Of a stretch of DNA of 64,000 nucleotides, positions 170 to 64,000 are shown piece after piece. The stretch is from an uncultured Verrucomicrobiae bacterium (GTDB lineage: Bacteria > Verrucomicrobiota > Verrucomicrobiia > Chthoniobacterales > UBA10450), in NCBI GenBank assembly GCA_963720895.1, contig CAVRGZ010000006.1:8328-72327 (forward strand), given 5' to 3'. How positions within the stretch are numbered: the first letter of the stretch is position 1; each line of letters begins with the position of its first letter. The notes under the pieces are model-generated. The model had not been told where the DNA came from and did no database searches. It worked only from the letters and a program-made list of their open reading frames with translations. Made by a program: the position numbers and the translations under genes.

Positions 170-1444
170 ATGACTACGACAAGCACGAGGAATTTGGAAC
201 TGACGAGGCCGTCAATTAGGCAAACGCGGCGGTTTTTTGCCCGGATTGCAGGCGCAGCGATTGTCTTCCTGATCGCGCTCACTGCTGCGGCGACGGCAAA
301 AGCGACGACCGAGGTGATTTATAGTTTCACCGGTGGCGCGGATGGTGAATATCTCGACACCGATGTGGCGATCGACGCCGCTGGAAACCTGTATGGAACG
401 TCAGTCCTGGGCGGGACGTTTGGCGGTGGCACGGTGTGGCAATTGAGCCTGGTGAACGGTAGTTGGGTGCATACGGTGCTCTACGATTTCACTGGAGGAG
501 CAGATGGCGGTGAGCCCTACAAAGGTGTGACTCTCGACGCCGAGGGTAATCTCTATGGAACAGCCGTGACCGGTGGCTCAGGAAGCTGCGAAGGCGGTTG
601 CGGAGTGACTTACAAGTTGAGCAAGAACGGATCGACCTGGACACAGACAGTTCTGCACGCCTTTACGGGCGCAGATGATGGTTCTGGCCCTGGCTCGAGA
701 GTCACGCTTGATCAGAAGGGAAATGTCTATGGCATGACTCCGACCGGCGGCGCTTTCGGTTTAGGCACAATCTATACGCTGCGGCCGAAAGCCAATAACA
801 CTTGGAATCTGCAAGTGCTCCACGCTTTTACGGGTGGCGTCGACGGATCATCCGGTTCGGCTGGTAAAATGGTTTTCCATCAGGGAGCTCTTTTCGGCGC
901 GGCCACGACCGGTGGCGCCTCCGGTCACGGCACAATCTTCAGACTTAAACCGCAGAACCGAGGTCAATGGACCTTTCAATCAATCTATTCTTTCCAGGGC
1001 GATCTGGACGGGAGCTTCCCCTACGGCGGACTAACGATCGATCTTTCAGATAACATCTTCGGAACCACCTACTATGGCGGGCCGGACGGTCTCGGCACGG
1101 TTTTCCAATTATCGTTCGCCCGGGGCGGATGGGTGAACCTGGTTCTCTACAGTTTCAAGTCGGGCACCGATGGAAATAGTCCGATCAGTAATGTCGTCTT
1201 TGATACCATGGGGAATATTTATGGTACGACGAGCGAAGGCGGCCTGGGCAGCGGGACAATCTTCCAGCTAGTTCCGGTGCCGGGCGGTAGCTGGTCGGAA
1301 ACATTGGCCCATGTCTTTGCCGGCTCGCCTGATGGCGCGTTTCCTTATTCTGGGATGAGTCCGGGCGCCGACAATACGTTCTATGGCGCGACCGTGCACG
1401 GAGGCGCAAACGGGGAAGGCGCCATCTATAAGTTTACGCCCTAA
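170..1444 (+). CDS. Secreted Gloeo_Verruco-repeat (GloVer) protein, beta-propeller-like
   Basis: ORF 113..1444. It has seven ~55-aa repeats of the form [VL][LI][YH].F.GG.DG..P...L..D..GN[LI]YG[TM]T..GG..G.GT[IV][FWY].L, which is the Gloeo_Verruco repeat pattern. After Met170 the N-terminus is QTRRFFARIAGAAIVFLIALTAAATAKA, a signal peptide with a twin-Arg. The start is ambiguous (TTG113, ATG119 or ATG170). Confidence 0.8.
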   Translation: MTTTSTRNLELTRPSIRQTRRFFARIAGAAIVFLIALTAAATAKATTEVIYSFTGGADGEYLDTDVAIDAAGNLYGTSVLGGTFGGGTVWQLSLVNGSWVHTVLYDFTGGADGGEPYKGVTLDAEGNLYGTAVTGGSGSCEGGCGVTYKLSKNGSTWTQTVLHAFTGADDGSGPGSRVTLDQKGNVYGMTPTGGAFGLGTIYTLRPKANNTWNLQVLHAFTGGVDGSSGSAGKMVFHQGALFGAATTGGASGHGTIFRLKPQNRGQWTFQSIYSFQGDLDGSFPYGGLTIDLSDNIFGTTYYGGPDGLGTVFQLSFARGGWVNLVLYSFKSGTDGNSPISNVVFDTMGNIYGTTSEGGLGSGTIFQLVPVPGGSWSETLAHVFAGSPDGAFPYSGMSPGADNTFYGATVHGGANGEGAIYKFTP

Positions 1445-1704
1445 CGATCGCGCTTTTCGTCGCGATCGTCTGGATCGCGACGCCACCGAATTCCTAACTT
1501 TTTTAGGCGGAAGAAATCAGTTTCCTCAGCTCGGACGACCCAGACTTATCTGCCTTATTCCATCATCCTAGGTAGCGTCTTTTACTGAGGCCGTCGAGTG
1601 CTCAAGCCCGCTCCCGCTGCTCTGGGGCGAAGATTTTGATTGCTAATTTTGGGATTTTTAGAGACAAATCATGCGGACTGGACCTAAAGCCGAGATCACC
1701 CCGT

Positions 1705-3246
1705 ATGAAACATATATCCCCATCGCGCCGCTGCACTGTTCGTCTAGCTCTCCTCTGTCTTGCGTTGTTCCCAATCGGATCGTCTGCATCAAGCTCGTTC
1801 CTCTTCGAAGATACCGCCCTACTCGCGACCGAGCGGGCCTATCACACCGCGACACTTCTGCCTGATGGCAGGGTTCTCGCCGCCGGTGGCAATACCGGCT
1901 CGGACCCCACTGCAACCGCTGAAATTTTCGATCCGGCCACCGGCGTCTGGACGCCCACCGGGAGCATGAATCAGGCGCGCTACCGGCATTCCGCTACTCT
2001 GTTACAGAACGGACTCGTGCTGGTAGTTGGCGGGCTCAATAACGACGACAAATCGATTGATTCGACGGAATTGTATGATCCGGCGACTGGAAGCTGGACG
2101 ACAACCGGAGCGCTTGTTGCAGGCACCGCTGCACATTCAGCGACCTTACTACCCGATGGCCGCGTGCTCGTCGCCGGAGGCGGCAACCAGACCGGCGCCC
2201 TCGTTGCCGCACAGCTCTATGATCCGGCGACCGGAGTTTGGATCCCAACCGGGAACCTGTTGGCGGCGCGGCAACGGCACGGGGCGACATTGCTGCCGAA
2301 TGGTCTGGTGCTGGTGAGCGGCGGCAAGGGGCCGAGTGGAGCTTTAACGAGCGCGGAACTTTATGACCCGGCGACCGGAGCCTGGACCCAAACGGGGAGT
2401 ATGGCCTTCGCCCGTTTCCGCCATACGCAAACCTTACTGCTCAACGGACTGGTCTTGGTGGCTGGAGGCCTTGATGTTGAGGGGACCTCAAGCATCTCGA
2501 GCACCGAGCTCTACGATCCGGCCGCCGGGACATGGACCATGGCGGGGTCCCTGAATGTCGCGCGCGCGCAGCATACGGCGACGTTGCTCCCCAATGGCCT
2601 TGTCGCGGTCCTGGGAGGTTTCCATGGTCCAACCGCGTCCAGCGAACTTTACGATCCCGCCACCGCAACCTGGTCGCTCAGCGGCGACATGATCAGGCCG
2701 CGAGCGGCCCATCAGACAGTGCTCCTGCCAGGTGGAGACATTCTCGTCGTTGCCGGCTTCAATACCGATCCGCCCTCAAACGATCCTTTGTCCCCCCCAT
2801 TCGACGATTACACGCTCAAGGAAACGGAACTCGGAACCCTGGAAGGAAGTCCGACACCTACGCCGACTCCGACCCCAACCCCAACGCCCGCGCCAATGAT
2901 TGCTAGCCAACCGAAGAACCAGAGAGTTCAGGCCGGTGCGACGGCGACCTTCAGGGTTCTCGCGACAGGCACCCCACCCCTGATCTACCAGTGGGCCAAG
3001 AATGGCATTGAGATTCCAGGGGCTGTCGGAGCAAAGTACACGACCCCTCCGGTTACCGCGCAAGATAATGGCAGCATGTTCGCCGTCACGGTCTCAAATT
3101 CCGGAGGTAGCGTCACGAGTCGGTCTGCGACCCTTTTTGTAAGGCTAGCCTCGACTATGATCGTTCAACCTCCAGACAGGAGTGTTCCGGTGGGCCAGAT
3201 CGCCCGATTCGGATTCGCCGCAACGACGTTGTTCGATGGACGGTAG
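1705..3246 (+). CDS. Kelch-repeat beta-propeller protein with Pro/Thr linker and C-terminal Ig-like domain(s)
   Basis: ORF 1636..3246, with the likely start at MKHISPSRR (ATG 1705) followed by a signal peptide. About 7 repeats of ATLLP[DN]G.VLV.GG....L.S.ELYDPATG.W match the Kelch motif. A PTPTPTPTPTPTPAP linker follows (about 2851-2895). Next comes an Ig-like module (QPKNQRVQAGATATFRVLATGTPPLIYQWAKNGIEIPGA). A second Ig-like module starts (IVQPPDRSVPVGQIARFGFAAT) and is cut off by the stop. Confidence 0.8.
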   Translation: MKHISPSRRCTVRLALLCLALFPIGSSASSSFLFEDTALLATERAYHTATLLPDGRVLAAGGNTGSDPTATAEIFDPATGVWTPTGSMNQARYRHSATLLQNGLVLVVGGLNNDDKSIDSTELYDPATGSWTTTGALVAGTAAHSATLLPDGRVLVAGGGNQTGALVAAQLYDPATGVWIPTGNLLAARQRHGATLLPNGLVLVSGGKGPSGALTSAELYDPATGAWTQTGSMAFARFRHTQTLLLNGLVLVAGGLDVEGTSSISSTELYDPAAGTWTMAGSLNVARAQHTATLLPNGLVAVLGGFHGPTASSELYDPATATWSLSGDMIRPRAAHQTVLLPGGDILVVAGFNTDPPSNDPLSPPFDDYTLKETELGTLEGSPTPTPTPTPTPTPAPMIASQPKNQRVQAGATATFRVLATGTPPLIYQWAKNGIEIPGAVGAKYTTPPVTAQDNGSMFAVTVSNSGGSVTSRSATLFVRLASTMIVQPPDRSVPVGQIARFGFAATTLFDGR

Positions 3247-3547
3247 CGAGCTTCCAGTTCCTCCAGACGACTAATACAAGCTGGAACGATTTCCAGGGAA
3301 GACGTTTTCTCCTTTGTTCGATCCCCCTAAGGATTGCAGGGAACAAGCTGAAAAGTTGGGCCGCGCTAATTGGGATCCGTTTTAGATTGTGGGCGTGAGG
3401 CTGGTTCGGGTACCCTAATCGCATGTTCGACATTTTTCCGTCCACGCCCCTGCAAGCCAGCTTGGTAGACCGCATAAGTTCGGCCTACTTTTCGTTAGGC
3501 TGAGGAAAAGACACTCTCCCTCACCAACACCCGTCCTCGGAGGTTCT

Positions 3548-4813: not shown

Positions 4814-5596
4814 TCAAGTGTTCCGTGCCGACTGCTCGAGATGCGAAGAGATGAGTTCGATCTCGGACCTTGTAAGCTCCGGCCGATCCTCATTTTGGAA
4901 ATAAGGTTGGACGTCATCAGCCGCGATCACGCGGACGTCGCTATCGTCGTCCCAGCTGTTTTTCACTTTCCAATCTCCGACGAAAACAACTACCGGCTTT
5001 ACAGAGGCCTTAACGCCAGCATCCCGAATCAAATCATGAACAACGCGGGCATTTCCCCTCGCCTGCTGGAGAGAATCTCGCTTTTCTTCGCGACCGCCAA
5101 CCAGGATCCCCTGCCCGTTCTTGAACTCGATCTCGCCCGAACCGCTACGGAACTTCGTTTCGACGGCAAAAACCCCCGGTGGCCCGACGACCACGTGATC
5201 AATATTGAACCCATCCCTAACGACGTCGTGGAAGCAACGGAAGTCGTTCGCGTCGAGTTCTTTCAGTTGCTCCGAGACGAACAACTCGCCGTGACTCAAT
5301 TTGCGGAACTGGCCCCAGAGTTGGCCGGATTTTATCGCTGTAATGCTCGTCGCGACGATCGCGAAGCAGAGATAAATCTTCGGTTCAGATGGCTGATTGG
5401 ACCGGATTTGAAGACCCATCACCAACCAGAGGACCCAGCAAAAGGCAGTCGCAAGAAAGAGCGGAATCAGCAAATTGTCCGTGATCCGCTCCTCCTGATC
5501 GCGCAGCGATTGACCAGGCGACCGACGAAAAGCCGGAGGCCGCGCCCATTTTTTCGACTCGGGAAACATCATCCAATCCGCTGTTGTCGGTTTCAT
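4814..5596 (-). CDS. NERD (nuclease-related) domain protein with two N-terminal TM helices
   Basis: The ORF track gives 4814..5977. The first 127 codons look non-coding, so I place the start at ATG 5596 (MKPTTADWMMF...). Two TM helices (LLIPLFLATAFCWVLWLVMGL, LCFAIVATSITAI) are followed by a NERD-type core: RCFHDVVRDGFNIDHVVVGPPGVFAVETKFRSG. Confidence 0.7.
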   Translation of the reverse strand: MKPTTADWMMFPESKKWARPPAFRRSPGQSLRDQEERITDNLLIPLFLATAFCWVLWLVMGLQIRSNQPSEPKIYLCFAIVATSITAIKSGQLWGQFRKLSHGELFVSEQLKELDANDFRCFHDVVRDGFNIDHVVVGPPGVFAVETKFRSGSGEIEFKNGQGILVGGREEKRDSLQQARGNARVVHDLIRDAGVKASVKPVVVFVGDWKVKNSWDDDSDVRVIAADDVQPYFQNEDRPELTRSEIELISSHLEQSARNT

Positions 5597-6136
5597 GCCA
5601 GATAAGGACGGGAGCAAAGAATATGCCAGACGCTGTTCATCGGCGCGGCGATCTTTGGCTTGGCTGGAGGCCAGGCGGGTCTCCGGCCCGGGCACAGGCT
5701 TGCAACTTTGGCGGACAGATTCGCGCTTTAGGGGTCCGGGTGAAACATTCCGGAATCCCAAATTCGCCGCTGGTCTGGAGTCGGAAAGTGGAACAAGCCG
5801 CCCGTGACTTACAGCCTGCGAGATATTCCTCTTCGACAAGAACAAGTCCGCACTCAAAAAAGCCGGACGGCTCAACGCGAGGAGTTCTTCGACTACCTCA
5901 CGCCCAAAAAACCTGGTTCCGTCACAATGCAGGCGGCTCTCTCGGTCGTCTACAGCGGGAAAATTCGGGCCTGCCATCTGATGGAAGTCCGGGTGCGACG
6001 GACTTCCGGGCGCAAAACGGCTCTTCCTGTTTGATGTCCCGAGAATTGGGCAGAATTTCAGATCGATGATCGGCGACCTTGCCGCAGGCGAAATTTCCTC
6101 TTTGACTCGCCGAAACGCTTTTGTTAGACGAACAGC

Positions 6137-6442
6137 GTGACTCGTCGCTCGCTCTCACAGATGGCAATCGTGGCTTTTGTTGTCACCTGCTGTGCCAAAG
6201 CAGACTATGCTTTTTCTCTGCCCGACGAACTCGTCGTATCTGTGGGCCCCCGATCCGACCCCGGCGACTTCGATCCCTATTTCAATCAGCCTAAAATTTA
6301 CCGTCAACCACGCTATTACGAATCAACGAGCAAAAAGACCAAAGGCAAAAGAGTGTTCAAGACGACAAAGGTCAGGGATCAATACGGTAACACGGTCTAC
6401 AAAAAGACCACCTCTCATAAGAAGAAGAAAAAGAAGCACTAG
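6137..6442 (+). CDS. Small secreted lysine-rich protein (unknown function)
   Basis: 101-aa ORF starting at GTG 6137 (alternative ATG 6161). The signal-like N-terminus is RRSLSQMAIVAFVVTCCAKA. The C-terminal half is very basic and ends KKTTSHKKKKKKH. No known family. Confidence 0.4.
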   Translation: MTRRSLSQMAIVAFVVTCCAKADYAFSLPDELVVSVGPRSDPGDFDPYFNQPKIYRQPRYYESTSKKTKGKRVFKTTKVRDQYGNTVYKKTTSHKKKKKKH

Positions 6443-6451
6443 TCCGCATTC

Positions 6452-6799
6452 ATGAAACTTCGGGTCTTTTTCTTCATCCTCTTAAGCATTGCAACCGTGT
6501 CCGCGTCCGATCTCGACTTCACGCTGGTGAACCGGACATCGCGAAGCTTTGAAGGTCTCTATATTACCGCCACTGACAACAAGGATTGGGACGCAAATAT
6601 CCTTCTCGACGGAAAAGTGCTGGCTGCTGGTGGAAAGATCCAGGTGCGCTTTAAGAATGAAGCGAAATCAGAAACCTGGGATTTCAACCTGGTAGACGAC
6701 GAAGGACTTTCAGTGACCCTGGGCAAGGTAAAGCTGGCAGGCGCTGACACGGTCACATTGACGGATGTCGACGGCAAGATCACTGCGGAGATTGAGTAG
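6452..6799 (+). CDS. Small secreted protein (unknown function)
   Basis: 115-aa ORF with a clear signal peptide (MKLRVFFFILLSIATVSASD) and a beta-rich mature part. It starts 10 nt after the previous gene, so co-transcription is likely. Confidence 0.55.
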   Translation: MKLRVFFFILLSIATVSASDLDFTLVNRTSRSFEGLYITATDNKDWDANILLDGKVLAAGGKIQVRFKNEAKSETWDFNLVDDEGLSVTLGKVKLAGADTVTLTDVDGKITAEIE

Positions 6800-7152
6800 G
6801 CGCGAACTTACTTCCAGGAGAAAGCAGTCTAAGTGGGATCGTTGGCGTGTTCGGCATCTTTCTTCCCATTTTCCCTGGACCCCCCGGCTAAAGTGATAAT
6901 GCGGTCCAACTCTTATCGCGGCCGGGTTGGTAGTGCCTCCCGTGCGATTGTGTAGCATTTTCGTCAGACGGTGCGATTGGGTCCGCACGAAGGGAAACGT
7001 CGGCCAGCCCCAAAACTGATCCTATTGGCCGGTCGCGGGTGTGGTTTGACTTCCGCTCGTGTGGCCGCTCTCTCGCTCGCCCTGCTGGCTTTCGAACTGC
7101 ATTTAGCCATAAATTTTCTTGCAACTTTTCCCGAATTCTGGCGAATTTGTTT

Positions 7153-8592
7153 ATGAACTTCCATCTCGGACAACGCCCCAGACCGACCCGTCTGGATAAC
7201 CGCATATCCCCGCCGTCTCGACCGCACTTGATCCTCCCCCTGATTTGTGCGGTTTCACTGGTAACAACAGCCCGAGCGACGACCGTGCTCGATCCGTTGC
7301 CGGAACCCTCGAGCACCCTCTTCGGCTACAGCGTCGCCTCTCTTGGAGACGTCAATGGAGATTCAGTGCCCGATTACGCAGTCGGAGCGCCTTACCAGGA
7401 TGGCGATTTTGTCTCGACCGTGACGGGCTTTGGGCTGCCGCAGAATGTTGGAAAAGTGCTTGTCATCGACGGAGCCACCTTGGCCACGCTGAGCGAAATG
7501 AATGACCCGGAATTTGAGCTGATACAGCCGCAGCATTTTGGCGGTCAACTGGGTTGGTCGCTCTCGGTCTCGAGTGATATCAATGGGGACGGGGTGGCCG
7601 ATGTGATCGCTGGGGTGCCGCATCACATTGCTGACCCAAACGTTCACGAGTCGATCATTAACGCGGGCAAAGCGCTCGTTTTCAGCGGCAAGGATGGCGC
7701 TCTGCTCTTTACTCTCCTGGATCCGGACGAACAGGAGGATGGCCTCTTTGGGAACTCTGTGGCCGCGCTGGGTGACGTCAATTCCGACGGGGTCGCTGAC
7801 TTTGCCGTGGGCGTACCTGGCCATGACATAGGAGACGAAGGAGATGGAGTGGCGAATGTGGGAACGGCTTACATCTTCAGCGGCAAGACGGGAGCCGTGA
7901 TTCGCACCCTGGAGGATCCTCCCCGTGGCGGAGAGGAGGCCGGTGCCGCCTTTGGGACGGCAATTGCCAACGCGGGTGATGTCAACAGTGATGGCGTTTC
8001 CGATGTCGTTGTGGGTGCGCCTGGCGAAGGCCGCGTTCATGTCTTCAATGGCAAGACGGGCGCGCTCCTCTATACGATCATCGGTCCCGAAACGGAATTG
8101 CTTACCTCCTTTGGGGCGGCGGTCGCCGGTGGGCAGGATTTCAGCAAGGATAAGAAGCCCGATATTGTTGTCGGTGCTCCTTTGCAATCGGGCAGCCGGG
8201 GCGCGGCCTATGTCTACAATGGACCTGATGGGACCTTGATTCGTCGCTTGAAATCGCCTGTTTCCCAGGCCTTCGCAAAGTTTGGGGCATCGGTTTACGC
8301 CGCGCCCGATCTGAGCGGAGATAAGCGGGCTGATATTATTGTTGGTGCTCCGGGCCAAAACGTGAACGGATTGCTCGGTGCTGGTCAGGCCTTTGTCTTT
8401 GACGGGGTTAAGGGCCGGCTTACGAGCACTCTGACAAGTGACAAGCCGCAAAGCAACGCCGGTTTCGGGACGGCCTTAAGTTCGATCCGTCCCGCGGGAA
8501 GCCAGGTCTCCACTCCCGTGGTTGGAGTACCTTACCAGGACTCATTCGATTCCATAACCCATCTGCAGATCGGCCAGATCGAGATTCAATAG
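7153..8592 (+). CDS. FG-GAP / integrin-alpha-like beta-propeller repeat protein, copy A
   Basis: The ORF track gives 7039..8592. I take the start as ATG 7153 (MNFHLGQRPRP...), matching copy B. It has repeated FG-GAP units with Ca-binding-like loops (FGYSVASLGDVNGDSVPDYAVGAP, FGNSVAALGDVNSDGVADFAVGVP, FGTAIANAGDVNSDGVSDVVVGAP, FGASVYAAPDLSGDKRADIIVGAP). Confidence 0.85.
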   Translation: MNFHLGQRPRPTRLDNRISPPSRPHLILPLICAVSLVTTARATTVLDPLPEPSSTLFGYSVASLGDVNGDSVPDYAVGAPYQDGDFVSTVTGFGLPQNVGKVLVIDGATLATLSEMNDPEFELIQPQHFGGQLGWSLSVSSDINGDGVADVIAGVPHHIADPNVHESIINAGKALVFSGKDGALLFTLLDPDEQEDGLFGNSVAALGDVNSDGVADFAVGVPGHDIGDEGDGVANVGTAYIFSGKTGAVIRTLEDPPRGGEEAGAAFGTAIANAGDVNSDGVSDVVVGAPGEGRVHVFNGKTGALLYTIIGPETELLTSFGAAVAGGQDFSKDKKPDIVVGAPLQSGSRGAAYVYNGPDGTLIRRLKSPVSQAFAKFGASVYAAPDLSGDKRADIIVGAPGQNVNGLLGAGQAFVFDGVKGRLTSTLTSDKPQSNAGFGTALSSIRPAGSQVSTPVVGVPYQDSFDSITHLQIGQIEIQ

Positions 8593-8600
8593 ACTAAAAC

Positions 8601-9809
8601 ATGAAAAACAAAACATCTATTCTTCTTAGTCTCGTGGGGTGCGCGCTTGGCGCGACCTTTACCAGCAGTGCATTGGCTAACCATCGAAGTGGCGATTTCG
8701 CCTTGCCCGAGATCATGACCGCTGGCGATTTCAATCAGGACGGCAACCTCGATCTCGCGGTCAACCTTTCTGGCTTCGATAACTTCGCGGTTCTGACCGG
8801 GGACGGTCACGGTGGTTTTACCCTGAAGAGTCATGTTGCGACCGATACGCTTCCGAAAAGTGTTGTTAGTGGAGACGTCGACGGTGATGGAAAGCTCGAC
8901 ATCGTGGCGGTCTCCGATTGGGGCTATACGATTAAGATCTTCCTCGGCGATGGCCTGGGTGGCTTCCATCTCTCCACTGTCCTGAATGGGGACGGAGAAC
9001 CAGTTAGAGTCCGGTTGGCCGATTTGGATAAGGACGGCAACCTTGACATTCTGGCCGATGCGCCAGCGGAAGGCATCCTCCTCATTTACTTCGGTCGCGG
9101 TGGCGGCGCTTTCAGTAATTCACCTCTCGAGCTGGAAGGATACACGAATCTCGCGCAGTTAATGACTGGCGATTTCAACAGAGATTCCAACCTCGATATT
9201 GCGTTTACCTATTTCGAGAACAAACTTGTGGATGGAACGCATTTGCAGATTCTCCTCGGCGACGGCCACCGTAATTTCACGGTCGGTCAAAATGTGGTGA
9301 TCAACTCGCAGTGCAATAACATCGAGGTCAGCGATTTGAACAAGGACGGTAAACTTGACCTTGTTCTCGCGGGAGCAATTTCGGAGAACGGCACAGGTCT
9401 CTTCATTTCCAGCTACCTCGGCGACGGCCACGGCAACTTTGCCGTGCAGCAAGTGATCGATCTCGGAGAAGGTGCCACCCGCGGGGAAATTTCGCTCGGT
9501 GACTTTAACGAGGATGGCAACATGGATGTTGCCTATCCATTGTCATCCGATGGCGGTATGAGACATGATTTCAGCACGGATCTCCTCATTTATCTCGGGG
9601 ATGGCGCCGGCAATTTCACCCAAGGCCAAACAGTCACTGTCGGGAAGGAACCCGGCTCCACCTGGACGGCTGATTTTAACAAGGACGGACACACAGATAT
9701 TGCCTGCACCAATCGCACCGATACGACGCTTTCGATTCTTCTTGGCAATGGAAATGGAACCTTTGTCACCCATGCCACCATTCCGTTGAACGCCTTGTCG
9801 ACGCCCTGA
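8601..9809 (+). CDS. FG-GAP/VCBS-repeat protein, copy A (intact)
   Basis: 402-aa ORF with a signal peptide (MKNKTSILLSLVGCALGATFTSSALA). It has seven or more repeats of GDFN.DGNLD.A........LGDG.G.F. It starts 9 nt after the preceding gene. Confidence 0.85.
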   Translation: MKNKTSILLSLVGCALGATFTSSALANHRSGDFALPEIMTAGDFNQDGNLDLAVNLSGFDNFAVLTGDGHGGFTLKSHVATDTLPKSVVSGDVDGDGKLDIVAVSDWGYTIKIFLGDGLGGFHLSTVLNGDGEPVRVRLADLDKDGNLDILADAPAEGILLIYFGRGGGAFSNSPLELEGYTNLAQLMTGDFNRDSNLDIAFTYFENKLVDGTHLQILLGDGHRNFTVGQNVVINSQCNNIEVSDLNKDGKLDLVLAGAISENGTGLFISSYLGDGHGNFAVQQVIDLGEGATRGEISLGDFNEDGNMDVAYPLSSDGGMRHDFSTDLLIYLGDGAGNFTQGQTVTVGKEPGSTWTADFNKDGHTDIACTNRTDTTLSILLGNGNGTFVTHATIPLNALSTP

Positions 9810-9851
9810 GGCCAGTGCGCAACGGCAGAGCCTGTCCGGAGGAGCGAATCG

Positions 9852-9884
9852 GAACTCCCTGGATGCCAGACATCTAGGGAGTTC
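9852..9884 (+). terminator. Hairpin between the two duplication units (possible terminator)
   Basis: GAACTCCCT (9852-9860) pairs with AGGGAGTTC (9876-9884) across a 15-nt loop and is followed by TTT. The loop is long and the T-run short, so this is weak as an intrinsic terminator. Confidence 0.3.
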
Positions 9885-9985
9885 TTTAGGCTCTCCCAAA
9901 ACGCCGGGGCGCAAAAGGGTCAGCAAGTAATTGAATTAGCCATAAATTTTCTTGCAACTTTTCCCGAATTCTGGCGAATTTGTTT

Positions 9986-11425
9986 ATGAACTTCCATCTC
10001 GGACAACGCCTCAGACCGACCCGTCTGGATAACCGCATATCCCCGCCGTCTCGACCGCACTTGATCCTCCCTCTGATTTGTGCGGTTTCACTGGTAACAA
10101 CAGCCCGAGCGACGACCGTGCTCGATCCGTTGCCGGAACCCTCGAGCACCCTCTTCGGCTACAGCGTCGCCTCTCTTGGAGACGTCAATGGAGATTCAGT
10201 GCCCGATTACGCAGTCGGAGCGCCTTACCAGGATGGCGATTTTGTCTCGACCGTGACGGGCTTTGGGCTGCCGCAGAATGTTGGAAAAGTGCTTGTCATC
10301 GACGGAGCCACCTTGGCCACGCTGAGCGAAATGAATGACCCGGAATTTGAGCTGATACAGCCGCAGCATTTTGGCGGTCAACTGGGTTGGTCGCTCTCGG
10401 TCTCGAGTGATATCAATGGGGACGGCGTGGCCGATGTGATCGCTGGGGTACCGCATCACATTGCTGACCCAAACGTTCACGAGTCGATCATTAACGCGGG
10501 CAAAGCGCTCGTTTTCAGCGGCAAGGATGGCGCTCTGCTCTTTACTCTCCTGGATCCGGACGAACAGGAGGATGGCCTCTTTGGGAACTCTGTGGCCGCG
10601 CTGGGTGACGTCAATTCCGACGGGGTCGCTGACTTTGCCGTGGGCGTACCTGGCCATGACATAGGAGACGAAGGAGATGGAGTGGCGAATGTGGGAACGG
10701 CTTACATCTTCAGCGGCAAGACAGGAGCCGTGATTCGCACCCTGGAGGATCCTCCCCGTGGCGGAGAGGAGGCCGGTGCCGCCTTTGGGACGGCAATTGC
10801 CAACGCGGGTGATGTCAACAGTGATGGCGTTTCCGATGTCGTTGTGGGTGCGCCTGGCGAAGGCCGCGTTCATGTCTTCAATGGCAAGACGGGCGCGCTC
10901 CTCTATACGATCGTCGGTCCCGAAACGGAATTGCTTACCTCCTTTGGGGCGGCGGTCGCCGGTGGGCAGGATTTCAGCAAGGATAAGAAGCCCGATATTG
11001 TTGTCGGTGCTCCTTTGCAATCGGGCAGCCGGGGCGCGGCCTATGTCTACAATGGACCTGATGGGACCTTGATTCGTCGCTTGAAATCGCCTGTTTCCCA
11101 GGCCTTCGCAAAGTTTGGGGCATCGGTTTACGCCGCGCCCGATCTGAGCGGAGATAAGCGGGCTGATATTATTGTTGGTGCTCCGGGCCAAAACGTGAAC
11201 GGATTGCTCGGTGCTGGTCAGGCCTTTGTCTTTGACGGGGTTAAGGGCCGGCTTACGAGCACTCTGACAAGTGACAAGCCGCAAAGCAACGCCGGTTTCG
11301 GGACGGCCTTAAGTTCGATCCGTCCCGCGGGAAGCCAGGTCTCCACTCCCGTGGTTCGAGTACCTTACCAGGACTCATTCGATTCCATAACCCATCTGCA
11401 GATCGGCCAGATCGAGATTCAATAG
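9986..11425 (+). CDS. FG-GAP / integrin-alpha-like beta-propeller repeat protein, copy B
   Basis: ORF 9980..11425 (TTG 9980 or ATG 9986). It differs from copy A at 3 residues (P/L near the N-terminus, I/V, G/R). Confidence 0.85.
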   Translation: MNFHLGQRLRPTRLDNRISPPSRPHLILPLICAVSLVTTARATTVLDPLPEPSSTLFGYSVASLGDVNGDSVPDYAVGAPYQDGDFVSTVTGFGLPQNVGKVLVIDGATLATLSEMNDPEFELIQPQHFGGQLGWSLSVSSDINGDGVADVIAGVPHHIADPNVHESIINAGKALVFSGKDGALLFTLLDPDEQEDGLFGNSVAALGDVNSDGVADFAVGVPGHDIGDEGDGVANVGTAYIFSGKTGAVIRTLEDPPRGGEEAGAAFGTAIANAGDVNSDGVSDVVVGAPGEGRVHVFNGKTGALLYTIVGPETELLTSFGAAVAGGQDFSKDKKPDIVVGAPLQSGSRGAAYVYNGPDGTLIRRLKSPVSQAFAKFGASVYAAPDLSGDKRADIIVGAPGQNVNGLLGAGQAFVFDGVKGRLTSTLTSDKPQSNAGFGTALSSIRPAGSQVSTPVVRVPYQDSFDSITHLQIGQIEIQ

Positions 11426-11433
11426 ACTAAAAC

Positions 11434-12640: not shown

Positions 12641-12733
12641 TTCAAAGTGCTTCGCGCGGTTGAGTGGGCGTCGGCACGCCTGCGGTTCGTCTGGGACGCA
12701 GAGGGGCGCAAGCAATCGTCTTGGCGAGGCGGC

Positions 12734-14105: not shown

Positions 14106-14504
14106 GGATAAAGGCCAGCTCCACTCTCAGTTGTGACTAAGACCGCATCATTTCCCGAGCGGGCGGGACTTTTGCAAGTCGAGGGCAAAATCCAGGGTGC
14201 CGAAAAGGGTTCTGTCGAATTTCGTCCGATAATGAAAGCCGTGGACAGGCTCTGCGGTGCGAATTCATTGGTTTCGTCTACAGTAATTTTGTCTGGACTT
14301 GCAATAGAAAAGTTGCTTGATCGGCACGCTGCGAAGGCGCCTTTTCGGCGCTGCCGAATACTCAGAAGGCTTTTGGAATTTGATCGACCAAATCGTGGTG
14401 ACTCAACATGATCAAAGGATGACTTCGGCGCCAAAAAGCCTAATCACATTTTTAAACTCGGGATTGGATGGGGCAGCTTTTATTTTGTCCGGTCCTGCGA
14501 GCGA

Positions 14505-15385: not shown

Positions 15386-15438
15386 GGCCACGACATCGCC
15401 GTCCCTGAACTGAAGCCGGTGTTTGGAGGGGAAACGCC

Positions 15439-15789: not shown

Positions 15790-15930
15790 TTGGGTATTTT
15801 GTTAAACATATCGCGACCCTGTCGAGCACAATTTTATTCGGTGATTGACATTTTCGTTGCCGCTCGATGACATGGCGATTGCAAACTCCCGCTGTTGGAC
15901 ATTACGGATCTCAGGCGTGAGAAAGAGACT

Positions 15931-52821: not shown

Positions 52822-53998
52822 ATGAAACGCAAACGAATCGTCGTCATGGGATTCATGGGCTCGATGCCGATCGCCGGCGTCATTTGGCAGCACATCCATT
52901 ACATCGTCGGCCTGCAGCGTCTCGGCCACGATGTTTATTACATTGAAGACTCCGCGCGGATTCCCTACAACCCGCAAACTTTCGACACGAGCAACGACTT
53001 TGCCTATGCCGCGCAATTCCTTGGCCAACTGGCGCGCGAGTTCGGCTTCGAGCGGCGCTGGGGCTTTTGTGCGCGCTATCTGCCAGAGCATCCGACGGCC
53101 GGAATTCGCCTGCCGAAAATCCAGCAACTCTACCGCGAAGCGGACGCCATCCTCAACGTCTGCGGGACTCAGGAATTCAATGACGATCTGCTGCAAAGCG
53201 AGCGCATTCTTTACGTCGAAAGCGATCCCGGGGTTGAGCAAATCAAAGTCGATCAACGGCGTTCGCTCGACGATCGATTATCTCGGGAAGCATCGCGCCC
53301 TTTTTACCTTTGGCGAAAACATCGGGACCGAAAGATTCCCCGTGCCGCTGCACAAGTTGAAGTGGCTCCCGACCCGTCAGCCGGTCGTGACCGATCTCTG
53401 GAAAACGAGTCGCGCGCCGGCGCGGCCGCGGTTTTCACCTCGATGGCCAACTGGTCGACCAGCGGCCTGAAAGACATCGAGTGGCGGGGCGAGAAATATC
53501 TCTGGAGCAAGTCGCGCGAATTTCTCCGCTTCGTGGCCGCGCCGAAAAGATCCGGCGAACCATTCGAGCTTGCGACCGACATCAAGGACGAGAAGACGCG
53601 CGAAAAATTTCTGCAGCAATGGCTGGCGTTTCCGCGCGCCGCACGAGATGAGCGTCGAGTATTGGCAATATCGCGATTATATCCGGCGTTCGAAAGGCGA
53701 ATTCACCGTCGCGAAGGATCAATACGTCCGGCTCCAGACCGGTTGGTTCAGCGACCGCAGCGCCTGTTATCTCGCGGCCGGGCGTCCAGTCATCACTCAG
53801 GAGACCGGCTTCACCGAGCACTACGGCAACAACGGCGGATTGTTCGCTTTCCGGTCGTTAGGCGAAATTGCCGAGGCGGTGCGCCAGATCAACGCCGATT
53901 ACAAGAAGCACAGCCGCGGCCGCGCGCGCCCTCGCCCGATGAGATTTTCGAAGCGGAGAAGGTCCTTGCGCAAACTCTTGGAACGCGCTGGAATTTAG
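52822..53998 (+). pseudogene. Conserved hypothetical protein, glycosyltransferase-like C-terminal half; at least 3 frameshifts as assembled
   Basis: ATG 52822 starts MKRKRIVVMGFMGSMPIAGVIWQHIHYIVGLQRLGHDVYYIED. The colinear continuation is in ORFs 52931..53470 and 53570..53998 (WFSDRSACYLAAGRPVITQETGF...GLFAFRSLGEIAEAVRQINADY). The fold assignment is tentative. Confidence 0.4.
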
Positions 53999-55703: not shown

Positions 55704-57223
55704 ATGCGTCAGACCGCTCTCCTTCTGATCATCATGCCTTGCTGCTCTCGCTCCGGCCGAGGCGAAGAAGGCGCCTGTCGCTCTGAAGAAATTGCCGGCG
55801 ACCGCGCAGGGCGCCGTGCAGGCCAAGGAAGTTTCATTGGTCCGGGTCAATGTAACCGGTCAACCGTACGATTATTTTCGGCCGTGGCAAAAGAAGGCGC
55901 CATTTTCCAAACGCGCCCTCGGTGCCGTGCTTCCGCAGGATCGCGTGCTCGTCACGGCCGATCTGGTGGCGAACCAGAATTACGTCGAGCTGGAGCGGGC
56001 GGAATCGGGCGAAAAAACCGCGGCGAATGTGGTCGTGGTCGATTACGAAGCCAATCTCGCTTTGCTCGAGCCGATCGATAAGAAATTTCTCAACGGCCTG
56101 CAGCCGCTCGAACTCGCGCTCGATATCGTGGTGGGCGATCGGCTTTCAGCCTGGCAACTGGAATCCACCGGCACGCTCGTGGTGACGGAAGGAATCGTGA
56201 CCACAGTCGGCGTTACGCGTTACCCGGCAGACGTCGCCGATTTTCTGACCTACCGCCTGAGCATTCCGATGCAATACCGGGACAACAGCTACACCGTTCC
56301 GCTGGTCAAAAACAACAAGCTGGCCGCCCTGCTTCTTCGCTACGACCCCCGCACCCAGGTCCTCGACGCCATTCCTGCACCTATCATCGCGCACTTTTTG
56401 AAGGATGCCGCCGGCGAGCACTACCAGGGATTTCCATCGTTGGGCATTGCCTTTTTCCCGACCCGCGACCCGCAATTGCGTTCCTATGCCGGCGAGACCG
56501 GCAAAACAGGTGGCGTCTACGTCACGAGCGTCGAACCAGGATTGCCCGCGGCCAAGGCGGGCTTGCAAGCCGGGGACATTATCACGGCGGTGGGCGACAA
56601 CGAGGTCGATCAAAACGGCAACTACGTTGACTCGCTCTATGGAAAAATCGAATTCAGCAATCTCCTCACCGCCAAGGCCTACGTCGGCGATTCCGTTGCC
56701 CTCCAAATTCAGCGCGGTGGAAAGCCAGTGACCCTGAACGTCAAACTCGAGCACAGGGCGTGAAAACGACTATGTCGTTCCCCCTTACAACATCGATGAG
56801 GCACCATCCTATTACGTTTTGGGCGGCCTGATTTTTCAGGAACTGACCCGCCAATACCTCAAGGAGTGGGGCGCGAACTGGCAAAAAGATGCACCGCAAG
56901 ACTTCGTCTATCTCGATAAGTTCCAGTCGGAGCTTTTCCCTGAGGGAAAACAGCGCGTCGTTATCCTGAGCCAGGTGCTGCCAGCGAACAGCACGATTGG
57001 TTACGATGACTTCAGCTATCTGGTCGTGAAAAAGGTCAATGGTAAAGAGATCAAATCGTTAGGCGACCTGGCCGAAGCAGTCAAAACACCCGTCAATGGC
57101 TTTCACGTGATCGAAACCGTGGACGACCCGAAGCAGCTCGAGCTCGACGCCTCACAGGTGGCCGCCGAGGCGGAAGCCTTGCAAAAAAATTACGGCCTGC
57201 CCGCGACACAGCGCTTGCCGTAA
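55704..57223 (+). pseudogene. Deg-like paralogue lacking the catalytic His and Asp (probable pseudoprotease) with PDZ domain, about 3 frameshifts as assembled
   Basis: It is colinear with the upstream Deg gene. It reads VLVTADLVANQ where ILTNAHVV is expected, and YEANLALLEP where DCDLALLP is expected. The Ser region reads YRDNSYTVPL. The PDZ-like segment is GGVYVTSVEPGLPAAKAGLQAGDIITAVGDNEV. Pieces lie in ORFs 55704, 55792..56763 and 56819..57223. Confidence 0.6.
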
Positions 57224-58039: not shown

Positions 58040-59012
58040 TCACTCGTTAGGTTGGGCGAGCACCGTCCGCCGATCGATCGGTCGACCGGCCGCCGCCCAA
58101 CGATCGTAGAGCGACCAACCGCGCGCGAGAAGTGTGGCGCCCTCCCCAAAGCGATCGGGACTGCCCAGAATCACCACGATCAAACGTCGGGGCGTGACGA
58201 CTGTTGCGGCGCCTTCTTGCACCACTTCCGACGAACGCGCCGCCGTGACGACAAGACAGTCGCCGGCGAGCTGAGTGCGGCCGGTTTTCACCCCATCGAT
58301 GTTGTCACGGCCGAGCAGCTCGTTGGTGTTTCGCAGCAGATAGCGCAAACGCTCGGAGCCGCGTCCGAAACCGATTTCCCGTTCCTTTTGCGAAACATAA
58401 AACCGGAAGCCCGCATTGTTCATCGCATATCTCGTCAGCCGGGCGATGTCCGCCGCGGTTGAGAAAGGTTTCTCTTTCCCATCGAGACCGCTCGGATTGA
58501 GAAAACGTGTCCGCTCCATCCCGAGATGCTGGGCGAGCGCATTCATCTGAAGGACAAAGTAATCGACCGGTGTCCCGCGGGCCGCCTCCCCGCTCGGCGG
58601 GACCAGCCCATGGAGGGCCCGTCCGACATGATCCCCCAGGGTGTAAGCTGCGATGTTGTCGGATTGTACGAGCGCCGCATAAAGCAGGTCACGCAACGTG
58701 ATCGTGTCGCCCGGTTGAAAGCCAATGTTGTTTTCGCTCGTGCCGACAAAAGCGGCCTCCGGGATGGTGGCGACCTGCGCGAGATCACCATTTTGTTTCG
58801 CGGCCCAATCGAGCACGACCATCGCCGTGGCGATCTTCGTCAGGCTTCCGACCTGGCGTTTCTTATCGGGCTGCAGCTTTTCAAGAACAAAGCCCGTCTT
58901 CGCATCGATCGTGATGCTGCTCTGGGCGGCGCGAAAGCGAGCGCGTCCCACCCAGGGCAAAAAGCGCCAAAAGCAGAGCCACGAGCGCAAATTTACGAAG
59001 GAAAACGATCAC
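58040..59012 (-). CDS. D-alanyl-D-alanine carboxypeptidase (S11 / PBP5-like serine hydrolase)
   Basis: ORF 58040..58990 carries SLTK (SxxK), SDN and KTG (GVKTGRTQLAG). A much better signal peptide, (V)IVFLRKFALVALLLALFALGG from GTG 59012, is in another frame. This suggests an N-terminal frameshift near 58920-58935. Confidence 0.75.
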
Positions 59013-59791: not shown

Positions 59792-59876
59792 CGCCGGTCT
59801 CCGTCGTTAGGACGTAGCCAGCGGCACTCTCTCGATGATGCAACTCTCGTGCCGTCGTCGCGAAAATTTCGTTCTC

Positions 59877-60377: not shown

Positions 60378-61333
60378 GGTGCGTTTTTGCCTAACGAAAA
60401 AAGATCGGATTGGCGCTCCGGTGCATGGGCGATCTGCCTGAGCGCCGCGCGCAGGCGGAGAGCGGCATGCGGCGCGAAATCGAGCGCGTTGTTGTTGAAG
60501 ACAACGTGCACGATATTCGCCTCGGAGGCGAGCTTCTTTGCCCGCTCCGCGATCTCGCTGATCTCTTCGTCGCTGTAGTCGTAATAGAAACGCTCGGCCA
60601 CAGTCTTGCCGCGCAAGTAAGCCTGCGCATCGCGCCCATGGAGCCGCAGATAAGCAAGCGGACAATGCGTCACCACGTCCAGGTCGCCCGGCATGATCGT
60701 AAAATGCGCGTCGTTAGGAGTGTCGACCAGCGAGAGCGTCGTGTTGTGGCGCCGGAAAAACTCGACGGTTTGCTCCAATTGTTCGTCGCTCGTCCAGTTC
60801 CGGTTCCGCAATTCGACCACCGCCCCCAGCGGACTCAAGCGCCCGAGCAAATCCTCCAGCTCTGCCAAGGTATGTTTTCGTGGGGAAAAGGCGGGTGAAA
60901 GTTGGAGAAGAAAAGCGCCAAGTTTTCGCTCCGCTCGCAGCGGCTCCACCGCCGAGATCAGTTCCTCGACCAGAGCGTCCTCGATCTTCGGGGTCAGCTT
61001 CACCTTTCCTTTCCCATCGCTCTCCGCGCTCCGTTGCAAGGCCGGCGGGAGTGATTTCAAGGTTGCGGCGTGACGTGAAAGCAGCTTGTGCGCTTTCACG
61101 TCGAAAATAAAATCGTCAGGTGTGCTCCGGCACCACCGTTCCACCACACGGCGAGCCGGGATGGCATAGAAGCTGGAGTTCACCTCCACAAGCTCGAAAT
61201 GTTGCGCGTACCACGGCAGTCGCTCAGCCGCCGGCAGTTTCGCCGGGTACCAGCGATCGACAAACCCGGGATCGGACCAACTCGCCGTGCCGACGAGTAT
61301 CCGTCCCGAATCGGTTGATGATTTCCGCGACAC
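60320..61333 (-). CDS. DUF72-family protein
   Basis: 337-aa ORF starting at GTG. The N-terminus ILVGTASWSDPGFVDRWYPAKLPAAERLPWYAQHFELVEVNSSFYAIP is the characteristic DUF72 signature. Confidence 0.8.
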   Translation of the reverse strand: MSRKSSTDSGRILVGTASWSDPGFVDRWYPAKLPAAERLPWYAQHFELVEVNSSFYAIPARRVVERWCRSTPDDFIFDVKAHKLLSRHAATLKSLPPALQRSAESDGKGKVKLTPKIEDALVEELISAVEPLRAERKLGAFLLQLSPAFSPRKHTLAELEDLLGRLSPLGAVVELRNRNWTSDEQLEQTVEFFRRHNTTLSLVDTPNDAHFTIMPGDLDVVTHCPLAYLRLHGRDAQAYLRGKTVAERFYYDYSDEEISEIAERAKKLASEANIVHVVFNNNALDFAPHAALRLRAALRQIAHAPERQSDLFSLGKNAPWLRKLSRNREPGRVSASG

Positions 61334-62792: not shown

Positions 62793-62869
62793 TGGTTGCG
62801 GGGGCGGGATTTGAACCCGCGGCCTTCAGGTTATGAGCCTGACGAGCTACCAGACTGCTCCACCCCGCG
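62793..62869 (-). tRNA. Initiator tRNA-fMet (anticodon CAT), CCA encoded
   Basis: The minus strand reads CGCGGGGTGGAGCAGTCTGGTAGCTCGTCAGGCTCATAACCTGAAGGCCGCGGGTTCAAATCCCGCCCCCGCAACCA. It folds as a 77-nt cloverleaf with a C1:A72 mismatch and a CTCATAA loop. It is near-identical in its first ~30 nt to E. coli tRNA-fMet. Confidence 0.88.
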
Positions 62870-63035
62870 ATCTTGAGAGGCCAATTATCACCGCGTTCGC
62901 AACGAACGCAATGGGAATTCGCGCCGCCGACATGATGCGCAACAAGACGGCGCAATCGTCCCCGCTGAAAAGTTGGACGATCTGTTTCGCGACGTTGAGC
63001 GTCTCCTTTGAACGGGTCGAGCCGGCGGAAGGCCG

Positions 63036-64000
63036 CTACATCGTTTCGATGTAGGCCGACTCCCCGTGGATCGCTTCGTCGAGGCCAAGTTCTTCGTGCG
63101 CATCTTCCACCCGCACGGGAGTGATCCGATTGATGAGCGACAACATTCCCAGGGTAAAGACAAACGCCCAAACAGACGAAAACAGTCCGGCGGCGAGCTG
63201 CTTTACGAAAAAAGCTCGAATCACCCGCGAGCAATCCATTTACGCCGCCACTTGGCCGCCGGATTCCACGCCGTCGAGGCGAAGACACCGAGCAACACGA
63301 TTCCGAGGAAACCGCCGACACCGTGCACTCCCCAGACATCGAGAGCATCGTCCCACTGAAGTTTGTTCTTCAGCGCGCATGCATAATAACAAACGATTCC
63401 CGCCGCGAGCCCGATGATGGCCGCCGTCGCCGGCGAAACATAACCCGCCGCGGGTGTGATCGTGGCAAGACCCGCGACCGCGCCGGTGAGCAAACCGAGG
63501 AACTTCGGTTTCTTCGAAACTCGCCAGTCGACCAGGAGCCACGCGATCGCGGCGAACGATGCGGCAATGTCGGTATTGATGAAGGCGACCGCCGTGATCG
63601 AATCCACGCGAAATTCAGAGCCGGCATTGAAACCGTACCAACCAAACCAGAGCAAGCCCGTGCCGAGCGCGACGAGCGGAATGCTATGCGGACCGCGATC
63701 CACCACCTTGCGCTTGCCGACGAAGAGAATGGAAGCGAGCGCAGCGATGCCCGCGATGTTGTGGACGACGATCCCGCCGGCAAAATCCTTTACTCCCCAC
63801 TCCGCCAGGATGCCGCCACCCCAGACCATGTGGACGAACGGAAAATAAACCAGGACCAGCCACCCGGTCAGAAACATCATGTAGGCCTTAAAGGTGATGC
63901 GGTTGGCGAATGCGCCGGTAATCAACGCCGGCGTGATAATGGCGAACATCATTTGGTAGGCACAAAAGACGATCATCGGAATGGTGTCGTTAGGCGAAGG
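63036..64000 (-). pseudogene. amtB: Ammonium transporter (Amt family), 5' end outside the window, frameshift(s) near 63230-63250 as assembled
   Basis: ORF 63221..63976 has FAGGIVVHNIAGIAALA, LLWFGWYGFNAGS and DVWGVHGVGGFLG. The conserved C-terminus (FFVKQLAAGLFSSVWAFVFTLGMLSLINRITPVRV...) is in ORF 63036..63239. The reading frame stays open upstream of 63976 to the window edge. Confidence 0.85.

Follow-up and report, generated by a model that had tools for sequence, protein, structure and literature searches.

A short DNA word, the 9-mer GCCTAACGA, is hyper-abundant in a 64-kb stretch of contig CAVRGZ010000006.1 (positions 8,328 to 72,327; here called the window) from an uncultured Verrucomicrobiae bacterium. 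We found that GCCTAACGA is no peculiarity of this locus but serves as a signature throughout the genomes of a clade of Chthoniobacterales (Verrucomicrobiota). Further, a codon-shuffle null, the spelling of tripeptides, intergenic copies, the conservation of sites, and the enrichment seen both in relatives and in metagenome contigs taken at random give strong support to selection or drive that targets the DNA word and not a peptide. The profile of the word (clade-wide, sharp, non-polar, conserved, and spaced) is shared by the DNA uptake sequences (DUS) of Neisseriaceae, the uptake signal sequences (USS) of Pasteurellaceae, and HIP1, a highly iterated palindrome of cyanobacteria. We therefore rank a tag linked to natural transformation as the likeliest explanation, although we hold this view tentatively.

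Copy number and reading frames

An exact search found 25 copies of the 8-mer (CCTAACGA, or TCGTTAGG on the opposite strand) in the window, 13 on the plus strand and 12 on the minus strand, and 18 of the 25 extended to GCCTAACGA, for which the expectation was 0.35. These totals, including the 13/12 balance, are those given by the first-pass annotation of the window; two of its coordinates were 10 nt too high (31373 for 31363 and 44207 for 44197). It had estimated ∼1.8 expected copies. Dinucleotide-preserving shuffles (n = 100) yielded a mean of 1.17 copies (max, 5), an enrichment of ∼21-fold, and Markov models of order 0 to 3 predicted 0.9 to 1.8 copies of CCTAACGA, with low-order models giving up to ∼55-fold enrichment. 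Among all 8-mers of the window (57 to 58% GC), CCTAACGA ranked first, above every GC-rich word.

CCTAACGA is asymmetric, i.e., it is no palindrome. The flanks of the 25 copies showed no kinship to each other, and among 367 distinct copies pooled from the window and its relatives, only two flanking positions were informative, −1 (G in 79%) and, weakly, −3 (T in 49%). Thus, the 9-mer GCCTAACGA is the whole unit and no piece of anything longer. Long repeats within the 64 kb were limited to a 2.83-kb tandem duplication of FG-GAP genes and to FG-GAP repeat units, and no inverted repeats were found within it.

Approximate gene calls were made with a dicodon model trained on the clade, and frame counts were pooled over 376 copies. 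It is important to note that some frame assignments at 43 to 54 kb of the window are uncertain because many genes there are broken by frameshifts. All four frames permitted by the internal TAA and TAG of the word were in use: Ser-Leu-Gly (138 of 376 copies), Pro-Asn-Asp/Glu (67), x-Leu-Thr-x (60), and x-Val-Arg-x (38). Another 73 copies (19%) were intergenic, and the ∼81% of copies that were genic roughly matched the coding fraction. The use of several frames, and the supply of stop codons by the copies at 1440 and 59107, had been seen in the first pass and hold here.

When synonymous codons were shuffled and the proteins left unchanged, the coding DNA of the window was expected to contain 1.0 ± 1.0 copies, and 17 were observed; for the closest relatives, 5.9 ± 2.2 copies were expected and 145 observed. 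This corresponds to a 17- to 25-fold enrichment. The tripeptide Pro-Asn-Asp/Glu was written as CCTAACGA in 49 of 53 cases (92%), and Ser-Leu-Gly was written as TCGTTAGG in 57 of 118 cases (48%) despite the rarity of TTA. The first-pass annotation had judged the TTA and CTA codons to be rare, and they make up 5% and 3.4% of leucine codons, respectively. It had also attributed the word to selection on DNA rather than on protein and had proposed a codon-shuffled null as a check; the shuffle, the spelling of the tripeptides, and the intergenic copies bear this out. Moreover, the Pro-Asn-Asp/Glu tripeptide was far commoner than in basal relatives that do not have the word, and the force is therefore strong enough to alter amino acids. 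This DNA-level force holds the word at roughly 0.4 to 1.4 copies/kb. It overrides codon preference, alters amino acids, and is at work whichever way the word points, whichever stop-free frame it falls in, and also outside genes. An explanation by codon or peptide usage is ruled out by the codon shuffle and the tripeptide spelling.

The signal of GCCTAACGA is very sharp. As a class, neighbors with one mismatch stayed near expectation, both in the window (∼33 observed versus ∼35 expected) and in the relatives (∼137 versus ∼140), with two exceptions, GACTAACGA and GCCTGACGA, which were both in excess. The first-pass annotation had added one-mismatch copies to the signal; as a class they are at chance, but five of the examples that it listed are GACTAACGA, a variant that is enriched in its own right.

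The 25 copies in the window, with coordinates, strand, and setting, are as follows.

1440..1447 (+), CCTAACGA: its TAA is the stop codon of a GloVer-repeat protein open reading frame (ORF) ending at 1444
3492..3500 (-), GCCTAACGA: intergenic; the previous ORF ends at 3246 and the next starts at 3548
5216..5223 (+), CCTAACGA: within ORF 4673-5605; Pro-Asn-Asp
14896..14904 (+), GCCTAACGA: x-Leu-Thr-x; sole copy within the motif-poor region
26104..26112 (-), GCCTAACGA: 3' end of ORF 26107-26706 (-)
31363..31370 (-), CCTAACGA: cyclic beta-1,2-glucan synthase (NdvB-like) gene; Ser-Leu-Gly
31739..31747 (+), GCCTAACGA: NdvB-like gene; Leu-Thr frame
33381..33389 (+), GCCTAACGA: NdvB-like gene; Pro-Asn-Asp
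34755..34763 (+), GCCTAACGA: NdvB-like gene; Pro-Asn-Glu
40279..40287 (+), GCCTAACGA: CPBP/Rce1-like protease gene; within a 6-nt insertion that more distant relatives do not have; kept in 9 of 11 near relatives
41970..41978 (-), GCCTAACGA: accD; Ser-Leu-Gly; same position in 18 of 18 aligned genomes
44042..44050 (+), GCCTAACGA: within metG (- strand), which is broken by frameshifts
44196..44204 (+), GCCTAACGA: within metG, broken by frameshifts
45204..45212 (+), GCCTAACGA: directly outside the 5' end of the metG homology
46116..46123 (+), CCTAACGA: ORF 46069-46404; Leu-Thr frame
46393..46401 (-), GCCTAACGA: end of ORF 46069-46404; Ser-Leu-Gly, then the stop codon
50885..50893 (-), GCCTAACGA: ABC-transporter gene, frameshifted 5' part
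53855..53863 (-), GCCTAACGA: ORF 52765-54114, which has no family match
57056..57064 (-), GCCTAACGA: PDZ_3 ORF 56819-57223; Ser-Leu-Gly
58044..58051 (-), CCTAACGA: 3' end of a D-Ala-D-Ala carboxypeptidase gene (-); Pro-Asn-Glu, then the stop codon
59106..59114 (+), GCCTAACGA: the DUF4410 gene 59108-59791 (-) takes its TAG stop codon from the complement of this copy
59804..59811 (-), CCTAACGA: intergenic
60389..60397 (+), GCCTAACGA: DUF72 gene (-); Ser-Leu-Gly
60711..60718 (-), CCTAACGA: DUF72 gene (-); Pro-Asn-Asp
63987..63995 (-), GCCTAACGA: ammonium-transporter gene (-); Pro-Asn-Asp

Occurrence in relatives and metagenomes

The closest relatives of the AccD protein of the window (up to 92% identity) came from soil metagenome-assembled genomes (MAGs) labelled Chthoniobacterales, Spartobacteria, "Candidatus Udaeobacter," or Verrucomicrobiota. 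The window itself belongs to a Chthoniobacterales genome of the Udaeobacter-like type. Across a sample of 80 AccD loci (1.13 Mb), the density of the word was 0.5 to 1.7 copies/kb in the nearest genomes and 0.1 to 0.3 copies/kb in many other loci, which is still ∼10 times expectation. Over the related genomes and independent contigs from soil metagenomes, densities spanned 0.2 to 1.7 copies/kb. Basal lineages, with AccD identity below ∼73%, had essentially no copies. When the densities of three words were placed on an AccD tree, their distribution was structured by clade. The word was found in both short-read and long-read assemblies of many independent studies and is therefore no sequencing artifact.

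Sampling was extended beyond the AccD neighborhood by scanning metagenome contigs for two copies lying 191 to 221 nt apart (the seed pair). Additional copies were present in 79 of the 120 contigs recovered. After contigs with the word in unrelated tandem or longer repeats were dropped, 45 contigs totaling 263 kb were left, in which extra copies reached 0.85 per kb and coding statistics resembled those of the clade. The enrichment thus extends over whole genomes and is common in soil. The first-pass annotation had made its claim depend on enrichment outside the window, and relatives and metagenome contigs are both enriched. A scan of IMG/VR viral sequences with the same seed pair returned 14 matches, none of which was motif-rich or had extra copies.

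We considered whether the copies might be fragments of a longer dispersed repeat, a miniature inverted-repeat transposable element (MITE), or an insertion sequence (IS), a possibility that the first-pass annotation had raised, or else an artifact of composition, codon use, or assembly. The word does lie within repeats in some unrelated metagenome contigs (L102, L149, L188, L105, L112, L159, and L166), but copies from the window and from its relatives share no flanking sequence, the dinucleotide, Markov, and codon-shuffle nulls all leave the count unexplained, and the word recurs in independent short- and long-read assemblies. Unlike repetitive extragenic palindromes, MITEs, and IS-borne repeats, the copies have no similarity beyond the core, and 81% are genic. 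For the window and its clade this explanation is refuted, and we give it next to no chance. The repeat-borne copies themselves, in tandem or longer dispersed repeats with a period of ∼31 to 120 nt in unrelated, mostly low-GC contigs (L102, L149, L188, and L162, with further cases in L105, L112, L159, and L166), arise from the search design and are a separate phenomenon.

Orientation, turnover, and motif-poor regions

The orientation of the word is random, with no polarity like that of Chi sites (RecBCD/AddAB recombination hotspots) or FtsK-orienting polar sequences (KOPS). The pooled copies numbered 198 on the plus strand and 178 on the minus strand. Over the 12 loci that had 8 or more copies, the majority orientation accounted on average for a fraction of 0.602, compared to 0.597 ± 0.021 expected for random orientation and 0.752 ± 0.030 for a signal with 75% polarity. 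Among the extra copies in metagenome contigs, 109 had the same orientation as the seed and 106 the opposite one. The balance noted in the first pass for the window thus extends to the clade.

A Chi-like or KOPS-like signal would also be an over-represented word of 8 to 9 nt that is denser in codon-typical than in atypical genes, and the copies in the window do seem to switch from mostly plus to mostly minus near 46 kb. This switch was not significant (runs test, P = 0.35; best-split test, P = 0.31), and orientation was random across the loci and in the metagenome contigs. The region from 43.5 to 50 kb consists of metG, a melibiase gene, purB, and other ordinary frameshifted genes with no DnaA-box cluster, and it is neither an origin nor a terminus. 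A replichore boundary, which the switch together with a flip in AT skew near 44 kb had suggested, was rejected on these grounds. Further, the density and fold enrichment of the word are far beyond those of known Chi sites. The Chi/KOPS explanation, already largely refuted by the orientation tests, is very improbable.

The copies were spaced more evenly at short range than expected. Spacings below 87 bp made up 1.1% of those in the AccD loci (expected, 7.2 ± 1.8%) and 4.6% of those in the metagenome set (expected, 11.8 ± 1.9%), a deficit that is compatible with a single tag per fragment being sufficient.

In blastn-aligned blocks from 13 genomes, a motif site was shared by both genomes in 464 of 915 cases (51%), compared to 14% for all other 8-mers in the same blocks; motif sites were thus kept 3.6 times better. 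Apart from the site in accD, individual sites appeared and vanished among the aligned genomes. Some were one base away from the sister sequence, mostly at the fourth base (CCTGACGA), and others arose where sister genomes differed at many bases, including one within a 6-nt insertion.

The two enriched near-copies occur in the window at the following positions.

GACTAACGA, minor variant: 1029..1037 (+), 40642-40650 (-), 46334-46342 (+), 47711-47719 (-), 50320-50328 (+)
GCCTGACGA, variant: 42411..42419 (+), 42950-42958 (-), 58837-58845 (-), 62837-62845 (+)

The GCCTGACGA copy at 62837-62845 lies inside a tRNA-Met gene (62793-62869, - strand), which is probably a coincidence. In some relatives, GCCTGACGA occupies positions at which others carry the main word, and the dialect-like variants were structured by clade on the AccD tree. 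Two relatives, L215 and L216 (88.5% identical), showed four differences involving GCCTGACGA (L216 positions 6891, 10776, 18379, and 20016, three of them within a motif desert described below), and in all four the word was present in L216 and absent from L215. At three of these sites the substituted position within the word was a different one each time, and at the fourth the main word had changed into GCCTGACGA. Such a pattern is difficult to account for unless a directional process recognizes the word as a whole, and it looks like such a process in action or like a dialect shift to GCCTRACGA. GCCTGACGA was in excess in long-read assemblies and MAGs (Fisher P, ∼0.002 to 0.03), which had suggested that base modification might be read from assembly errors at this word. 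We rejected this idea given that L215 and L216, which are assemblies of the same kind, differ 0 to 4; this difference and the substitutions at three motif positions indicate that GCCTGACGA is a lineage trait and not a miscall.

Other words were abundant in some relatives. AAGATCGACA, which is asymmetric and contains GATC, was hyper-abundant in L016, L021, L023, L034, and L056, and its core GATCGACA reached 1.4 copies/kb in one sublineage. In L016 (19 kb), 26 copies of GATCGACA and 12 of CCTAACGA were found, so two words reach high density in one genome. (T)GCCCTACAA was enriched alongside GCCTAACGA in L057 and L068, where its core GCCCTACA had 7 copies per locus (expected, ∼0.2 to 0.4). It agrees with tGCCTAACGA at 7 of 10 positions and, judged by this resemblance, looks like a dialect of the main word. 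Weaker candidate 8-mers, each from a single genome, were ACTGCCAC, CCGAATCC, AACTCCGC, and CTGACAAC/AGTTGTCA in L045, L070, L077, and L080.

The word was not evenly distributed over longer distances. Positions 5224..26103 of the window (20.9 kb; GC content, 0.55 versus 0.59 in the rest of the window) contained 1 copy where ∼8 were expected (P = 7e-4, for a stretch chosen post hoc). This motif-poor stretch holds duplicated FG-GAP genes and a cluster of two KAS III genes, an FADH2-halogenase gene, and a lactonase gene. The duplication (∼2.83 kb in tandem, at 7103-9809 and 9936-12640) comprises two FG-GAP repeat genes whose copies are 86 to 99% identical. In L215 and L216, the orthologous region (5700-18900 in each) had 13.2 kb with zero copies and flanks with ∼1 copy/kb. 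Synteny between the relatives and the window was confined to a 6.7-kb core and broke on both sides, so the gene content around the cluster is flexible. Across the genes, density was 0.99 copies/kb in codon-typical ones and 0.63 copies/kb in atypical ones.

A recent island does not account for the motif-poor region. The halogenase homologs of relatives were 85 to 92% identical (one match, on a 77,290-bp contig, was 100% identical), and between L215 and L216 the desert was as diverged as its flanks (89.3% and 87.6% identity, respectively). The desert is therefore old, vertically inherited DNA that has not gained the word. The conserved cluster itself (window 14372-21078; L215/L216 5700-18900) consists of an acyltransferase-like gene, two KAS III genes, an FADH2-dependent halogenase gene, and a gene for a lactonase-like beta-propeller, with an additional sulfotransferase gene in L215 and L216. 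The word is almost missing from this cluster, which is lower in GC. The cluster looks like a small pathway for a lipid or halogenated metabolite, as predicted from its genes.

These observations bear on the possibility that the word is a functionless by-product of a sequence-specific bias in mutation or repair, such as very-short-patch (VSP)-like correction or biased gene conversion. In agreement with such a bias, sites arise through single substitutions from near-matches in sister genomes, and neighbors at positions 2 and 3 are somewhat below Markov expectation, although this expectation is itself inflated by the motif. The neighbors that transitions by 5-methylcytosine deamination would produce were not depleted, however (TCTAACGA, 8 versus 5.1 expected; CTTAACGA, 4 versus 3.6; CCTAATGA, 4 versus 2.9), and VSP-type repair was rejected for this reason. 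A uniform bias also predicts Poisson spacing and no deserts of 13 to 21 kb in long-resident DNA, and neither holds. Moreover, an enrichment of 25- to 55-fold is far above known VSP effects. We consider this explanation improbable.

Several features of the gene context were recorded separately. Between 35300 and 51500, many conserved genes are split by frame switches relative to intact orthologs, in places roughly one per few hundred bases (e.g., 35310-35376, 38437-38495, 43140-43257, 43697-44805, 47980-48421, and 51060-51390). The genes split include those for the NdvB-like glucan synthase, bioA, folC, metG, the melibiase, purB, the ABC transporter, and an HtrA-like protease. The pattern points to an assembly prone to errors, probably one made from long reads, and not to genuine pseudogenes. 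At 36561-38147 (-), a single ORF fuses a TlyA-type rRNA 2'-O-methyltransferase (S4 and FtsJ domains) with an NAD kinase. The scarcest tetranucleotides of the window were CTAG (observed/expected, 0.47) and GTAC (0.53), and GATC and CGATCG were at expectation.

Candidate roles and comparison with known systems

We tentatively favor the reading that GCCTAACGA is a conspecific-DNA tag of the DUS/USS/HIP1 kind, linked to natural transformation and accumulating by molecular drive. A component of DNA uptake or processing would prefer DNA that bears the word; candidates are a minor pilin, some other receptor for DNA at the cell surface, or a step that follows binding and depends on methylation. An allele that gained the word would have a better chance of uptake by, and recombination into, other cells, and the word would build up by molecular drive in recombining DNA shared by the population and stay rare in flexible or foreign DNA. 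Changes in the recognizing protein would yield the words of sister lineages (GCCTGACGA, GACTAACGA, GCCCTACAA, and AAGATCGACA). We infer the receptor, the step of action, and competence alike. An uptake signal would fit the density, length, sharpness, and non-polarity of the word, its use of frames, its dialect-like variants, and the motif-poor flexible region. With somewhat greater reserve, we suggest that Chthoniobacterales and "Candidatus Udaeobacter"-like Verrucomicrobiota might possess a third, independently evolved family of transformation-linked self-DNA tags, of which, as part of the same suggestion, GCCTAACGA, GCCTGACGA, GCCCTACAA, and possibly AAGATCGACA would be the dialects.

Several points weigh against an uptake role. 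A uniform uptake drive does not, on the sequence comparison of L215 and L216, predict DNA that is long resident and yet free of the word, and the coexistence of two unrelated words at high density in L016 would suit several methyltransferases at least as easily as several receptors. We know of no transformable member of the Verrucomicrobiota. The ComF-family gene that the first-pass annotation had placed at 40605-41333 is real: the ComFC/GntX-like gene at 40605..41333 (+) has DZR_2 and Pribosyltran domains and matches TIGR00201 (E = 3e-36), although its score of 125 bits is under the curated NCBIfam cut-off of 233.55. Since such genes are widespread in bacteria, it is weak evidence and, taken alone, gives the word no link to competence. 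The 64-kb window was found to hold no gene for a pilin and no comEC, comEA, or dprA.

The placement of the copies is a further point of this kind. For DUS and USS, terminators hold about half of the copies, many of them as inverted pairs (bioRxiv 10.1101/2025.10.24.684340), whereas ∼81% of the copies here are genic and show neither habit. There were no inverted pairs closer than 94 bp in 1.2 Mb, and terminator-like sites near the copies were close to chance, with one weak site overlapping a copy; the enrichment near terminators that the first pass had proposed to look for was thus not found. Around 11% of copies lay within 30 nt of a stop codon, compared to 6% expected, and 19 contained one. 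A role as a terminator or hairpin was rejected on the lack of close inverted pairs and of terminator association.

The main alternative is that a conserved DNA methyltransferase, or else an abundant protein that organizes the nucleoid or chromosome, recognizes the word, with cell-level selection acting on each site and no role in uptake. This would account for sites conserved well beyond background (51% versus 14%), their regular spacing at short range, and their random orientation. It would also account for unrelated words that co-occur in a genome and turn over between lineages like methyltransferase specificities, and the desert in old, vertically inherited DNA could mark a differently organized domain. 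Against it, no DNA methyltransferase or restriction genes were found in the 64-kb window, C-to-T neighbors of the VSP type were not depleted, and the one lead toward base modification, the excess of GCCTGACGA in long-read assemblies, is weakened by the 0-to-4 difference between L215 and L216. To our knowledge, a 9-mer is longer than nearly all known methylation sites, and this one also differs from them in being non-palindromic. HIP1, which is equally over-represented and conserved, was first read in this way (PMC5861425, PMC4390886), but it is itself now being linked to transformation (bioRxiv 10.64898/2026.06.24.733823). On balance, we regard a methyltransferase or nucleoid-protein site as unlikely.

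If the transformation-linked reading is true, self-DNA tags would be a recurrent solution and not a curiosity. Sequence-specific DNA uptake is established in just two families of Proteobacteria, and the link of HIP1 to transformation is only emerging. The word would then point indirectly to natural transformation in a lineage that cannot yet be cultivated, whose members would be naturally competent and would preferentially recombine DNA of their own kind; Chthoniobacterales and "Candidatus Udaeobacter"-like bacteria are among the most abundant uncultured soil bacteria. In practical terms, the word and its dialects are compact taxonomic signatures that could aid the binning and classification of soil metagenome contigs, motif deserts could flag horizontally acquired or flexible regions, and the word could guide the design of DNA for genetic manipulation of these organisms. 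The uptake claim is directly testable on existing data, namely, long-read metagenomes with raw signal and hundreds of MAGs.

Among known systems, the closest parallels are DUS (core GCCGTCTGAA) and USS (core AAGTGCGGT). Like the word described here, both are non-palindromic, 9 to 10 nt long, and present at ∼1 copy/kb, tens to hundreds of times over expectation, in both orientations and with no replication polarity. Both use several reading frames and inflate the tripeptides that they encode, whose frequency they double, and both are scarce in flexible DNA and missing from genes that lack homologs (PMC2817400). They are also clade-specific, with dialects 1 to 3 bases apart (PMC3630211). In contrast, our word belongs to another phylum, is unrelated in sequence, and, among the pooled copies, has no AT-rich flank of the USS kind; unrelated words also coexist densely in some of the genomes. 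In the DUS and USS systems, competent cells take up word-bearing DNA by preference and have competence machinery and a sequence-specific receptor (ComP; ComN is predicted).

HIP1 (GCGATCGC) resembles the word in its strong over-representation (15- to 300-fold), its density of ∼1 copy/kb in coding and non-coding DNA, the conservation of its sites between genomes, and its lineage-specific variants (PMC5861425, PMC4390886). For a long time no function was known for it, and recent evidence now connects it with transformation (bioRxiv 10.64898/2026.06.24.733823). It differs in being a palindrome built around known methyltransferase sites (GATC and CGATCG) and methylated by conserved orphan methyltransferases, while the word here is asymmetric with no known methylation site inside. 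Compared to Chi and KOPS, which are likewise short, over-represented, and richer in resident than in foreign DNA but have a strong orientation skew that flips at the origin and terminus, the word is set apart by its lack of orientation bias and by its much higher density and fold enrichment. A 2025 survey reported uptake-enhancing sequences only in Neisseriaceae and Pasteurellaceae, and in our full-text searches no paper turned up that describes this word, or an uptake signal of any kind, for Verrucomicrobia, in line with the first-pass statement that none had been described for this kind of organism. We rate as new the occurrence, in a further phylum, of a hyper-abundant signature oligomer, some of whose habits differ from those of DUS and USS.

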